From the IMG/VR virus record IMGVR_UViG_3300024272_002379: 64,000 bases of DNA; one strand, 5' to 3'. The notes below the pieces were generated by a model that worked only from the letters and a program-made list of their open reading frames with translations, was not told where the DNA came from and did not search any database. The first letter of the stretch is position 1. Each line of letters begins with the position of its first letter. A program made the position numbers and the translations under genes. This document shows positions 28,252 to 32,356 of this stretch, piece by piece. Origin of the DNA: a virus (Duplodnaviria; Caudoviricetes).

Positions 28252-29805
28252 TTATATCACCTCCTTGGTTCCTAGTGCTCTGTAAAAAATTCTAGGATTA
28301 GCAAAACACTCTGCTAATCTTTTAAATGTGTATTCTGCAATATATCCATAGCTTTGGTCACATTCTACGTTTTTCCATTTACCATTAAGAAATGTAATAT
28401 TCATTTTCTCTTCTGTGGAATCTGGACTACCAGTTGACCAGTTAAAATAAGATAACGGATTATGATTTGAATCATAGAATATATTATCTATAAATGACCG
28501 TGTTCCATTAATCCAATAGGTTTTACCTGATATAGTACGATTTTCCACAAATGTATTTTTTGCTGACGAGTCTATCAGACACAGTTCACAACCCATTTCT
28601 TTCATTTTATTGGTTGTATCATAAAAGTCATTTAAACTTGCATCATTGCAAAAAATAATTTTATTACCGTAGAAATCTGCATTGGTTACATATGCTGGAA
28701 CAGTGTTAATAAAATTGCTTTCAATAACTATTTCTCCATCATCTGTATAGTGTCCAGTCACACAAATTTGTTTTCCTCTTTCAACAGAATAAACGAATGG
28801 CAGAGGTACATCAACTACCTTTCCATCTAAATCATACCTAAAGTATAATTTTATATTTTTATTTCGAATACCAGTTAATGTTCCAGCAGGAATTGTATGT
28901 GTAATACTAATTCGTTCATTTACATTAGTCTGTCCAGGAATTGGAGAAGAACAAATGATATTTCCTTGTGGAATATCAAATTCACCATTTGTGATATTAT
29001 GAGGAATCATTTGCATTAGCTGCTTTAATTCTGTTGCAGTATCTATATGGACAAACTCCAGTAACTGTATTCTAATATCATCCTTAAGGTCAGGTATGCA
29101 ATTTTTAACATATTCTTGACCGTATTTTAGCCAATTGCCAGCATTTGCAGCTATCTCTCTTGCGTGTAATAATATACGATTGGTATTGAACAAGTACAAG
29201 ATTAACTCTTCCATTGTTCGTTTCTGAATATCATCTAATTCTGCTTTATGATAAATTAGATTGTTACGATAGTCACTTGTAACTTGGTCTAAATGTTCCA
29301 CCAAAGCTAAATCTATTTGTGTTTTAGTTCCAGAATACTTCAGCATATTCAAAGTTTCGATATTGTCATGAATGTGTGGATTATCCGAAAGAAGAAGTCT
29401 ATTCAACTCTTCATTTAAGATATCCATATTACTCAAATCATGAACGTGTGCTGTTGGTCTACGTCTATTTTTTAATCGAAAATCGTTTCCTTGACATATG
29501 GTGTCTGCACTATTTCCAAAGTCTTTATTGAAAGCTGATTGTTTTTCAAAAGCAGGCTCTCCACCAAAATCATGAATAGAAAGTAGTATATGTCCAGTTT
29601 TTTGATTTAGAGAAAATAAAAAACCATGCTCACCAAGAACATCTCTCTTTAATCTGGTTAATGCTTCATTTATCATTGCTTCGACAGATTCTTTGGAATA
29701 ATTATTCTCAATATCAAAATAACGCTGAACTATTCTTAAAAGATAAGATTCGACTTCATTTACTTCTTTCGTAAATTGATTGTCTTCGTGTTCTCTTAAG
29801 TTCAT
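28252..29805 (-). CDS. tail-fiber-like protein with C-type lectin domain
   Basis: C.GND.RL...R.P..H.H fiber motif; C-terminal YWING...YFNW..G.PD...W....C....GYI.EY C-type lectin pattern. Confidence 0.65.
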   Translation of the reverse strand: MNLREHEDNQFTKEVNEVESYLLRIVQRYFDIENNYSKESVEAMINEALTRLKRDVLGEHGFLFSLNQKTGHILLSIHDFGGEPAFEKQSAFNKDFGNSADTICQGNDFRLKNRRRPTAHVHDLSNMDILNEELNRLLLSDNPHIHDNIETLNMLKYSGTKTQIDLALVEHLDQVTSDYRNNLIYHKAELDDIQKRTMEELILYLFNTNRILLHAREIAANAGNWLKYGQEYVKNCIPDLKDDIRIQLLEFVHIDTATELKQLMQMIPHNITNGEFDIPQGNIICSSPIPGQTNVNERISITHTIPAGTLTGIRNKNIKLYFRYDLDGKVVDVPLPFVYSVERGKQICVTGHYTDDGEIVIESNFINTVPAYVTNADFYGNKIIFCNDASLNDFYDTTNKMKEMGCELCLIDSSAKNTFVENRTISGKTYWINGTRSFIDNIFYDSNHNPLSYFNWSTGSPDSTEEKMNITFLNGKWKNVECDQSYGYIAEYTFKRLAECFANPRIFYRALGTKEVI

Positions 29806-29819
29806 ATTTACACCTGCCT

Positions 29820-31034
29820 TTATAAAACAAAGATTCGTTTGGAATACACTGTATAGATGACTCTTGCATCTTTTACTTCTTCAGCTATATCATCTTGAGA
29901 GCTTAATACTAAAACGATTGCATTGGTGTTATAATCGGTTTCCATTTGTAATGAACCTGTAACAATATTATTTTCAAACATAATATGAGGAAGCGGGCCA
30001 CGAACTGTTCTACCAGTTGACAATTCCTTATATTCTATTTGCGTTTCTATTTGACAATCAGATAAAGCCTGCCCTCTATTAGTAAGCTCGTTTAAAATAA
30101 CTGGGTCTATGTTAACACTTACTGTTTGTTGTGTTCCAATAGCGTTAATGTTAAGCACAGAAGCGATAGAAATATTCATCGCTCCTACTAACATATAGGA
30201 ATTATTCACAATCTCCAGCATGTCTGTTAAAGCATCTCTTGTGATAAGATTTCTAATTTCTTGTTCTAATTGAACTTTTGCCTCTCCAACAATTCTATCT
30301 GAGTATTGTTTTGATAACTCATAATGGTCATTATTTGAATCCACTACATGCTGATTAAGATTAAGAACTTCAGTTTCCAATCTGACAAATTCTGTATTTA
30401 CATCTCGTATTTTATTATCTACTTCAGTTCTGTAATTGAGTACTTCTCGTCTTACTTCATCTGCAATGCTGATTACTCTATTTTCTAAAGTATCTAATAC
30501 CGTTAAATCAATAGATGAATTATTTCCTGTATAAACAAGCATGTTCAACAAAGCGTGATTTCTATGAGTATGTAAGAGTGCATTTGTACGGTTCAACTTA
30601 CCTTCGATAGTACTAAGAATGCCTTCTAGTCCAATGATTTCTGATATTTCATGTTCATGACTTAATGGAAGTCTTGCATCATACAATCTTGGGTCATTAC
30701 CTTCGCAAGCTGTATTTTGCTCAGTACCAAATGGAACATTGAATGCAGATAATTTAGGAGCTATTAAAGGTTCGCCGTTTAAGTCTTCCAGCGTAATAGT
30801 AACTGCTCCAGTTCTTTCTTCCCCATCTGGCATTATGACACTCAGAACTCCAATAGTATCAAAAGATAATTCTTCCTTCATACGAGCTACTGCTTTATTA
30901 ATAATGTATTCTTTTGATGTACTGGATGCAACATTTGAACTTGCAAAATACTCTTGTACTAAATTTAACAAATACCGTTCAACGGTATCAGGATTTTTCG
31001 TAAATCGGTTGTTAGATAGTTCTTCCATTCTCAT
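29820..31034 (-). CDS. tail-fiber-like protein, paralog of 28252-29805
   Basis: N.FTK...VE.YLL..VQ.YF, K.SAFN..FG, CEGNDPRL.DAR.P..H.H.ISEI.GL. Confidence 0.65.
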   Translation of the reverse strand: MRMEELSNNRFTKNPDTVERYLLNLVQEYFASSNVASSTSKEYIINKAVARMKEELSFDTIGVLSVIMPDGEERTGAVTITLEDLNGEPLIAPKLSAFNVPFGTEQNTACEGNDPRLYDARLPLSHEHEISEIIGLEGILSTIEGKLNRTNALLHTHRNHALLNMLVYTGNNSSIDLTVLDTLENRVISIADEVRREVLNYRTEVDNKIRDVNTEFVRLETEVLNLNQHVVDSNNDHYELSKQYSDRIVGEAKVQLEQEIRNLITRDALTDMLEIVNNSYMLVGAMNISIASVLNINAIGTQQTVSVNIDPVILNELTNRGQALSDCQIETQIEYKELSTGRTVRGPLPHIMFENNIVTGSLQMETDYNTNAIVLVLSSQDDIAEEVKDARVIYTVYSKRIFVL

Positions 31035-31399
31035 GGAGTACTTCCTCCTCTCTGTGAAGCAATTGATGTCATTTCACTTTCAAGCATATCAAAAACAGGA
31101 CATGTTGTACATGTTCTTACAATTTTTACATCTTCAAGCACGCTATCTTGTACGTCAGTAGATTGTTGAACTTTTTGTAATACATTTTCTGTTTCACCTT
31201 GGCTGTTAAGATAATCGCCATAATACAATTTATGTATTTGACTGATTTCTAAGCCGTTATAATTAGGCCAATTAGTTTTAACAAAGGCCAATCTTCCATC
31301 ATTGTTTTCAAAGTCATATGTTAAATCAACTGTATCTGATGGCTCTATTACTCTGACAAGTTTATCATCCTGGGCTCTATCTCTGATGAGGATTGTCAT
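31031..31399 (-). CDS. hypothetical protein, probably the C-terminal extension of 31425-32081 via +1 frameshift
   Basis: No strong RBS; its frame is open back to the CCC-TAG of the upstream gene. Confidence 0.6.
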   Translation of the reverse strand: MTILIRDRAQDDKLVRVIEPSDTVDLTYDFENNDGRLAFVKTNWPNYNGLEISQIHKLYYGDYLNSQGETENVLQKVQQSTDVQDSVLEDVKIVRTCTTCPVFDMLESEMTSIASQRGGSTP

Positions 31400-31424
31400 T
31401 CCATCATCAGAGCCTATTTCGACA

Positions 31425-32081
31425 CTAGGGAAATCGCTGTAGGTCTGGATTTGTCATTCCATAGTTAGCTTCTACCTGAGCATCCCAGTATAGAATAGCA
31501 TAACCATTTAATACAGGTTTTTCTCTTAAGGAATTTGCCTGCATTTCTATGACAACTTTAAATCCAAACTTAATATTTTCAGATAAGTGTAATGGCAATT
31601 TTAAAGAGTTCGGTAATATAGGCCAACGCTCTCCTGTATATGTTTCCAGATAATACTTAATCTGAGCACCTACAGGAACGTTTTGATTAGTAATTAAAAA
31701 GAAGTCATTCATCTCTATCTCTGGACCATGCACACTATATATAACTGTACTAATTGCAGTACCCTCGTTATTATTTCTATCAATGGTCAACTGAGTAGTA
31801 GGAAAATCGACTTCAACTCCGTTAGATGCATTCATGTTTATATATTCACCTGTCTTAAATGAATCTATAAACATAGCGTTTGTAAATAAATTATTATCAA
31901 AAATTGTATATACTCGTTCTTCGAATGCTGTATCTTTTACTATATTGGTATCTTGCTGCTGTGTATTTATATCGTCCTGTAATTTATTTACGGTTTGTGC
32001 ATCAACTCTTTCATGAGAATCATTAACGTGTCTCTTATATTTTGTATATTGTCTTTTGGTATCAAATTCATTTAATGCCAT
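31425..32081 (-). CDS. putative virion structural protein ending in TTT-CCC-TAG
   Basis: AAAGGAGTG RBS; KPVLNGY strand like neighbouring structural paralogs. Confidence 0.65.
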   Translation of the reverse strand: MALNEFDTKRQYTKYKRHVNDSHERVDAQTVNKLQDDINTQQQDTNIVKDTAFEERVYTIFDNNLFTNAMFIDSFKTGEYINMNASNGVEVDFPTTQLTIDRNNNEGTAISTVIYSVHGPEIEMNDFFLITNQNVPVGAQIKYYLETYTGERWPILPNSLKLPLHLSENIKFGFKVVIEMQANSLREKPVLNGYAILYWDAQVEANYGMTNPDLQRFP

Positions 32082-32095
32082 AATTACACTCCTTT

Positions 32096-32356
32096 CTAAT
32101 CTATATCTATCATGTCTACAACTAAATTAGGAATATCAAGATAATATATTTTTCCATCTGTAACAAAGAAGTGTTCTTTCGTTCTTGCATTCATCATAGA
32201 TGGTCTAAATGTCGGCTTTTCAAAATCTCCGTTAAACTCCCAGTAGCAGGTTCCTCCTGATTCCTCAGTGAAGAAACAATATGTATTCCCAGACATAGGC
32301 GATTCCATTAAGTATCCTATGATAACGCCGCCACGCTCTACTGGTTTGATTTTCAT
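32096..32356 (-). CDS. DUF6527-like small protein
   Basis: W.FNGD.EKPTF.PS.......H.FVTDG.I.YL signature. Confidence 0.7.
   Translation of the reverse strand: MKIKPVERGGVIIGYLMESPMSGNTYCFFTEESGGTCYWEFNGDFEKPTFRPSMMNARTKEHFFVTDGKIYYLDIPNLVVDMIDID

Follow-up and report, generated by a model that had tools for sequence, protein, structure and literature searches.

A gene on the minus strand of the IMG/VR virus record IMGVR_UViG_3300024272_002379 was analyzed in a 64,000-nt stretch (hereafter the window, to which all coordinates refer) of an uncultured phage of ~210 kb. The gene is divided between two reading frames, and the sequence at their junction, UUU_CCC_UAG, is very probably a programmed +1 ribosomal frameshift site of the CCC-shifty-stop class. 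A +1 slip at CCC-TAG had been proposed in a preliminary description made from the letters of this DNA, and it is now supported by comparative evidence, as both the site and the frame relation recur in related loci. Additionally, the downstream frame is under purifying selection from the first codon past the stop, and orthologues exist in which both parts of the protein are encoded by one uninterrupted open reading frame (ORF). The gene product is assigned to the virion proteins of the baseplate/fibre zone and is a distant relative of gp167 of Bacillus phage 0305phi8-36.

The upstream frame (ORF1) encodes a protein ending in ...DLQRFP. At the junction the minus strand reads ...CAG CGA TTT CCC TAG TGT CGA AAT AGG CTC TGA TGA TGG AAT GAC..., in which TTT occupies positions 31433-31431, CCC 31430-31428 and TAG 31427-31425. 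When CCC-T is read as one step, the translation continues as FP-SVEIGSDDG-MTILIR and gives a product of 349 amino acids (aa) without meeting a further stop. The junction peptide of this +1 product is FPSVEIGSDDGMTILIR, and its counterpart in relatives is FPSIEVGDDDGLTIIVR. The preliminary description was found to be correct in its coordinates, in the CGA TTT CCC TAG ending of ORF1, in the junction peptide and in the sizes of the two predicted products (218 and 349 aa). The stop codon of the +1-frame part overlaps the ATG of the next gene (ATGA). The features of the gene are listed in Table 1.

Two properties of this site agree with the class to which we assign it. The ORF ends in CCC followed by a stop, and the U after CCC permits re-pairing of tRNA-Pro on CCU. 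CCC is also the rarest proline codon, accounting for 15 of the 682 Pro codons in the window (2.2%) and for 54 of 2094 (2.6%) in the complete 208-kb relative G001. This gene alone ends in CCC-stop among the 59 ORFs of the window, and again alone among the 211 ORFs of G001. As a separate observation, the window contains 14 further in-frame CCC codons and not one of them precedes a T, which would fit avoidance of CCC_U, the numbers being too small for significance.

The signals for initiation are distributed unequally between the two frames. ORF1 is preceded by the Shine-Dalgarno (SD) sequence AAAGGAG, which is the sole ribosome entry site for the short and the long products. The downstream ORF as recognized by ORF callers (ORF2) had been described as lacking a strong SD, and this held when the 20 nt 5' of its ATG were inspected: apart from a GGA abutting the ATG, nothing SD-like was present. 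The flanking genes carry SD sequences of the types AGGAGG, AAGGAG or AGGTGG, and an SD core of at least 4 nt was found for 38 of the 59 window ORFs.

For comparison, 29 related loci were fetched from metagenomes and IMG/VR, on contigs of up to 218 kb, some of them with direct terminal repeats. The resulting set consisted of 23 distinct DNA sequences, the window included, with protein identities of 52-74%. All fetched loci containing the junction were of the two-frame type, and the downstream part was in frame +1 in all of them. TT[TC] CCC followed by a stop codon was present in 22 of the 23 distinct sequences, the stop being TAG in most and TGA in four, so that the extended site takes the form TT[TC] CCC TAG[T/C] or TTT CCC TGA[G/A]. 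The distance from the Phe codon to the DDG motif was exactly 22 nt in all loci except one, a relative with a 9-nt in-frame insertion in the linker. The arrangement as a whole goes far beyond chance.

This constancy stands amid extensive change in the surrounding nucleotides. The median pairwise number of synonymous substitutions per synonymous site (dS) was ~1.6, meaning that synonymous sites are saturated, and the retention of CCC-stop at this level of divergence goes beyond neutral drift. The Arg codon immediately 5' of TTT was found in six kinds (CGA, CGC, CGT, CGG, AGA and AGG). Past the stop, the linker peptide was kept as S[VIL]E[IV]G.DDG in the presence of many synonymous changes, and the same peptide occurs in the fused orthologues described below. 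The preliminary description had named conservation of CCC-stop in homologues as a check on the frameshift, and the homologues do keep both the CCC-stop (with TAG or TGA) and the +1 relation.

The coding status of the downstream frame was evaluated in the same set. The +1 frame was open for 119-143 codons in all complete relatives. The ratio of nonsynonymous to synonymous substitution rates (dN/dS) was 0.23 for the +1 part, compared to 0.18 for the part upstream of the site, and fell to 0.09 in the 30 codons that directly follow the site, the nine linker codons among them. These values point to purifying selection acting on the +1 frame from the first codon past the stop. The position corresponding to the window's ORF2 ATG is TTA, CTA, CTT, CTG or ATA in most relatives; the window is one of 6 distinct sequences, out of 23, with an ATG or TTG there. 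For at least 11 of the 23, the +1 frame offers no ATG, GTG or TTG until 81-122 codons downstream of the site. As most relatives have no start codon at this position or for the next 81-122 codons, separate initiation of the second part is ruled out in them, and independent initiation at 31399, the outcome that according to the preliminary description would speak against a frameshift, is not available at that position in most of the family. The relatives thus encode a conserved +1 polypeptide that would have no initiation of its own; the window taken by itself, with an ATG nine codons after the site, is compatible with either reading. On the upstream side, the +1 frame is closed by a stop codon 3-9 codons before the site in all but one sequence, often by the TGA within ATG AGN, and the change of frame is therefore confined to the Arg-Phe-Pro codons.

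Additional evidence was provided by protein families. The profile phrog_28136 (283 positions, no known function) matched ORF1 over profile positions 17-197 and ORF2 over positions 207-278, and the +1 fusion gave one continuous match to it (E 9.7e-29, residues 30-304). Pfam contained no family for the ORF1 or ORF2 product, and the isolated phages of INPHARED gave no match, either to the protein or to a 3-kb stretch of DNA used as query. A search of 5.8 billion proteins returned 492 homologues, and among the best 120 of these two populations were counted. One consists of ~90 clusters of 217-219 aa with 69-90% identity, almost all with a C-terminal RFP. The other comprises 29 single-ORF clusters of 311-363 aa with 49-69% identity, most of which span 88-100% of the fusion. 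Across the junction the single-ORF proteins read RFP[S/A/E/K].E.G.DDG[L/M/V/I]T..[I/V]RDRAQ and align to the +1 product without a gap. Natural fusions, another of the checks proposed earlier, do therefore exist in homologues.

DNA was fetched for three fused lineages, each of them from at least two samples, and their gene order was the same as in the shifted loci: a giant protein of ~1260 aa, proteins of 378 and 170 aa, the gene itself, and proteins of 385, 519 and 755 aa. The fused junctions read TTT CCC TCG GTA, TTT CCA GCT GTT and TTC CCT GCA CTT. Fused forms thus use CCC, CCA or CCT where shifted forms have CCC, which indicates that the choice of Pro codon is constrained to the rare CCC only where a shift is required and can otherwise vary. 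The residue after Pro is encoded by an AGY Ser codon in shifted forms and by TCG (Ser) or an Ala codon in fused forms, so the two forms differ by more than a simple indel.

The relationship between the two forms was explored on trees. In a maximum-likelihood tree of the N-terminal part (120 rows) the shifted and fused forms were interleaved, with 8 changes by parsimony, and the well-supported branches alone force at least two state changes. A FastTree analysis that included the DNA-verified loci, which should be taken with caution, placed the TGA-type shifted forms in a deep clade other than that of most TAG-type forms, each type beside fused forms. Either the shift is old and was lost several times, or it was gained repeatedly at the same Phe-Pro codon. 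As no short form is produced by the fused lineages, the long form would be the indispensable product. A broader proposal, which we consider tentative and rather doubtful at present, is that the frameshift is no peculiarity of a single lineage: the family would have moved into and out of the shifted state time and again, always at this Phe-Pro linker codon, with shifted forms (of TAG and TGA type) and fused forms interleaved in several deep clades. If this were true, selection would act on the ratio of a short, jelly-roll-only form to the full-length form, and the baseplate or fibre could be tuned through it. The signal setting the ratio would be UUU_CCC_stop, minimal and free of stimulators, and a phage tRNA-Pro(UGG), reading CCC as a near-cognate codon, would perhaps modulate it. 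The fused and shifted orthologues in syntenic 210-kb phages provide natural matched pairs with which the value of a fixed short:long ratio can be addressed.

The slip mechanism is proposed by analogy with CCC-stop sites tested in other systems, and the production of both products and their ratio are inferred as well. All ribosomes would start at the ORF1 AUG. At UUU_CCC_UAG, peptidyl-tRNA-Pro would be located on the rare CCC in the P site with the stop codon in the A site, and termination behind a Phe-Pro C-terminus would be slow. In some of the ribosomes the tRNA would re-pair in +1 on CCU, AGU (Ser) would become the next codon, and translation would go on for 131 codons. Two products are thus predicted: a short form of 218 aa, consisting of a helix and a jelly-roll, and a long form of 349 aa, extended by a second beta domain and a C-terminal helix. 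This longer product would be the counterpart of the protein that sister phages make from an uninterrupted gene. The protein would be no different if tRNA-Phe slipped from UUU to UUC. This re-pairing is not possible at two loci, however, where the Phe codon is TTC, hence tRNA-Pro on CCC appears to be the common denominator.

Other ways of passing the stop were tried and rejected. Read-through of TAG would be followed by more stops in the zero frame within 2-8 codons at every locus. Reassignment of the stop codon does not agree with the use of TAG to end 22 of the 59 window ORFs or with the TGA present at the site in some relatives. A -2 shift would lead into the same frame with an extra Pro and would need re-pairing of tRNA-Pro on UUC; since the fused orthologues align to the +1 product without a gap, +1 is preferred over -2. 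Decoding by a quadruplet-reading tRNA was also judged unlikely, with the tRNA-Pro genes of the relatives having the anticodon UGG in normal 7-nt anticodon loops. These tRNA-Pro(UGG) are ordinary, and the complete relative G003 has the site and no tRNA-Pro gene at all, so a dedicated tRNA is not required.

One unusual tRNA-like gene was observed in G001, an IMG/VR genome (L037:1185-1279). It is 95 nt long and scores 45 bits against the Rfam tRNA family; its variable arm is long and its anticodon loop measures 16 nt. ARAGORN called a 4-base anticodon, 'ttag', for it, which fits neither CCCU nor UAGU, and the most plausible interpretation is a tRNA of the Leu(UAG) type into which 9 nt are inserted after position 37.

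Table 1. Features of the two-frame gene in the 64,000-nt window
Feature	Position	Strand	Description and basis
Shine-Dalgarno AAAGGAG of ORF1	32089..32095	-	Read from the sequence; SD survey of the window
ORF1, zero frame, 218 aa + TAG	31425..32081	-	N-terminal helix and jelly-roll (CBM-like) domain; predicted short product upon termination
Putative shift site UUU CCC UAG U	31424..31433	-	Window sequence and conservation in relatives
+1-frame part, 131 codons + TGA	31031..31426	-	Predicted beta domain and C-terminal helix
+1-frame linker, nine codons (SVEIGSDDG), from zero-frame stop to ORF-caller ATG	31400..31426	-	Coding only upon shift
ORF2 as seen by ORF callers	31031-31399	-	122 aa from its own ATG; frame +1 relative to ORF1
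Local hairpin, stem of 9 bp + 3 bp, 7-nt loop	31381..31412	-	12 nt 3' of the stop; prediction, z -1.6

Several observations weigh against a programmed shift or limit what can be expected of it. No conserved RNA structure was detected, as RNAalifold gave 0 conserved pairs between -30 and +110 in 22 aligned sites, pseudoknots as such not having been searched for. The hairpin predicted 3' of the stop in the window is present in the closest relatives and absent across the family, and is probably incidental. Likewise, no conserved SD-like sequence was found upstream of the site among the aligned relatives: the codons before the site vary (CAG CGA, ATG AGG, GCC CGG, CAA CGC), and a GAGG located 3 nt before CCC in some relatives is found neither in the window nor in many others. 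Without a conserved stimulator the efficiency could be as low as a few per cent, like that of most CCC_UGA sites in E. coli (PMC3082878). The fused lineages manage without the short form. In the window itself the ATG 25 nt past the stop makes a minor independent or re-initiated translation of 122 aa possible.

The conservation of the site is, in addition, not absolute. Locus L010 (1.4-kb contig, 660-670), the remaining one of the 23 sequences, has TTT CCT TAG, and locus L060 (995-1030) reads TTT CCC CAA GGT CGA..., with no stop at the site. At L010 good re-pairing of tRNA-Pro is not possible; a UUU-to-UUC slip of tRNA-Phe would yield RFLS there, and Leu occurs at the corresponding position in some fused homologues. 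The zero frame of L060 extends for 8 more codons to a TGA, and a +1 shift from CCC_C gives PKVEIGSDDG, as in fused homologues. The CCC_C quadruplet is consistent with tRNA-Pro slippage. L060 is a single 1.3-kb Logan contig and may represent either a sequencing error or a stop-less CCC_C slip site.

The ATG nine codons into the second frame also speaks for a different history, in which an old one-base insertion split the gene and left two separate halves, the second of which is started at ATG 31399 by coupling or re-initiation and assembles with the first non-covalently. An ATG or TTG is found at this position in the six sequences mentioned above, and the cut falls between two domains, in a flexible linker that would tolerate a split. 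Most relatives, on the other hand, have no ATG, GTG or TTG there or for the next 81-122 codons, no SD precedes the ORF2 ATG, and the nine linker codons are conserved at the protein level, the changes in them being synonymous and the one indel in frame. The rare CCC, which separate halves would not need, is retained in 22 of the 23 sequences, and the fused orthologues vary this codon freely. For these reasons we regard a split gene as improbable for the family, with initiation at this ATG being possible as no more than a minor extra route in the window. An inactivated gene or an artefact, in which the second frame gives no product and the break stems from a faulty assembly, a sequencing error or a frameshift mutation of recent date, is the least probable of the explanations weighed here and can be regarded as excluded. 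One extra base relative to the fused orthologues is indeed the commonest type of sequencing error and of inactivating mutation; the same arrangement, however, was found in independent JGI, ENA, Logan, NCBI and IMG/VR assemblies (~90 protein clusters and 23 DNA sequences), the second frame shows the signature of purifying selection, and the contrast between AGY in shifted and TCG or Ala codons in fused forms does not correspond to a simple indel.

The same 349-aa product could also be reached by another recoding route, namely the loss of a base from the mRNA through slippage or editing at TTTCCC, or decoding of CCCU as a quadruplet by a special tRNA. Neither the product nor the comparative signals would differ in these cases, and the relatives do carry tRNA genes, including tRNA-Pro(UGG) and the odd tRNA-like gene. 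T3C3 is nevertheless far shorter than the homopolymer runs that are known to cause polymerase slippage, the tRNA-Pro of the relatives has 7-nt anticodon loops with anticodon UGG, G003 has the site with no tRNA-Pro gene, and CCC-stop works without a special tRNA in the systems in which it was tested. Thus, we consider such a route somewhat less likely than even a split gene, and more likely than an artefact, and the programmed +1 slip of tRNA-Pro at CCC-stop is the reading carried forward below.

In terms of mechanism, the site is a well-supported example of a well-known class and introduces no new principle. The gene for release factor 2, prfB, also has a shifty stop, with CUU_UGA_C, an internal SD 3 nt upstream and autoregulation by release factor 2. 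As in prfB, a +1 frameshift at a shifty stop would be obligatory for the full-length protein of a two-frame gene; the present site differs in having no conserved SD-like stimulator upstream. Because both UAG and UGA are used at the site, feedback by a single release factor is unlikely. The cps-type site of Listeria phage PSA has a 3' stimulatory pseudoknot or structure, whereas no conserved structure was found here.

The closest parallels come from phage virion genes. In the lactococcal 936-group phage PhiC0139, a fusion of the major tail protein with TpeX is produced by a +1 shift at CCC.UAG and was detected by Western blot (PMC4759559). The likeness extends to an identical CCC_UAG shifty stop, to a phage of a low-GC Gram-positive host and to a virion protein extended into the next frame. 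TpeX, in contrast, is an accessory extension that the major tail protein carries in some phages only, whereas the +1 part described here is a conserved half of a baseplate/fibre-zone protein, encoded in one frame by sister phages; the long form of PhiC0139 was seen by Western blot, and the long form here is predicted from sequence. Bacillus phage SPP1 makes gp17.1 and gp17.1* in a ratio of ~3:1 by means of CCC_UAA, the extension of gp17.1* being a non-essential FN3-like domain (PMC6316719), and the tsh genes of Listeria phages PSA, A118 and A500 have a utilised +1 shift at CCC_UGA (PMC5009743). These SPP1 and Listeria precedents had been cited in the preliminary description and were confirmed in the papers. 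In both, as proposed here, a rare CCC is followed by a stop and tRNA-Pro re-pairs on CCU, which gives two virion proteins with a common N-terminus in a fixed ratio. They differ from the present family in being tail-tube proteins, and in that this family flips between fused and shifted states. No Ig or FN3 signature was found in the +1 extension by Pfam (residues 215-349), Foldseek or VIA-align.

The arrangement of the site itself is the same Phe-Pro-stop as in E. coli pheL, where +1 shifting at UUC_CCC_UGA reaches 15%, with a contribution of the penultimate Phe through the nascent peptide, on which it depends, and without a need for any 3' element (PMC3082878). This agrees with the lack of conserved RNA stimulators in the phage family. 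The pheL shift was judged incidental, as its +1 peptide is not conserved (PMC3082878), whereas the +1 product here is strongly conserved, which suggests that in this family the shift is used. The incidental shift of pheL is thereby extended to a case with a clearly used shifted product, and in these large relatives of a Bacillus phage a bare Phe-Pro-stop site has persisted although synonymous divergence is saturated. What distinguishes this example within its class is its occurrence in a baseplate/fibre-zone gene of 0305phi8-36-like jumbo phages, in which the +1 part is an integral, conserved half of the protein and no optional decoration. The coexistence of fused and shifted orthologues and the failure to find an auxiliary stimulator that is conserved set it apart as well. 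There are also consequences for annotation, as ORF callers either split the gene or leave a 400-base "gap" in it. The ~90 public clusters of 217-219 aa are truncated calls, and the predicted true long product of 345-360 aa is missed in them.

The assignment of the gene product to the baseplate/fibre zone is suggested by comparisons with 0305phi8-36, a 219-kb myovirus of Bacillus thuringiensis. The link to this phage came solely through a neighbouring gene and through profile and structure comparison. The family profile matched the N-terminal ~195-200 residues of gp167 with an hhalign probability of 96.4% (E 1.4e-9), the overall identity being very low; the C-terminal part gave a weak tblastn match to gp167 (34% over 96 residues); and the best viral structural match of the protein was a 591-aa protein, exactly the length of gp167. 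The 755-aa gene located three positions downstream shows 27% identity, over its full length, to gp171 of 0305phi8-36. gp167 has been detected in 0305phi8-36 virions by mass spectrometry, and the zone in which it is located has been attributed to fibres or additional components of the baseplate (PMC2147016). It differs from the protein described here in being encoded by a single 591-aa ORF with C-terminal FN3 domains and no frameshift. The gene of the window is located within a minus-strand block of late genes, several of which match PHROGs annotated as virion structural protein. These gp167 and neighbour matches agree with the earlier statement that the gene does not look like a major capsid or tail-tube gene.

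Structural models of the protein are in line with a two-domain organization around the shift site. Modelling of a naturally fused orthologue with AlphaFold2 (AF2) gave a long helix at residues 28-63 and a beta-sandwich or jelly-roll at residues 69-200 with predicted local distance difference test (pLDDT) values >90; matches to the jelly-roll were carbohydrate-binding (CBM-like) and PAW/P-domain folds. A disordered interdomain linker of low confidence follows at residues 217-237 and holds the shift site, and a second beta domain and a C-terminal helix come after it. When the +1-encoded domain of the window was modelled with AF2, a six-stranded sheet and a helix were obtained at a mean pLDDT of 75.5. 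No fold could be assigned to this domain, with no Foldseek match at E <= 0.001, VIA-align Z <= 4.0 and no Pfam hit for residues 215-349.

Some features of the neighbourhood were recorded in addition. Between a 164-aa gene and ORF1, the window carries an 86-aa DUF6527 gene (32096-32356, minus strand; Pfam E 2.4e-7), and this slot is empty in the fused-form relatives L031, L033 and L034. On the other side, the next two genes (28252-31034, minus strand), encoding proteins of 404 and 517 aa, share an N-terminal module of ~125 residues that matches phrog_36886 (E 1e-27 and 2e-20). In both, the shared module is followed by short matches to tail-protein PHROGs, and a C-type lectin domain (Pfam E 1.5e-5) forms the C-terminus of the 517-aa protein. 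The pair resembles receptor-binding proteins that are alternatives to each other and share one anchor.

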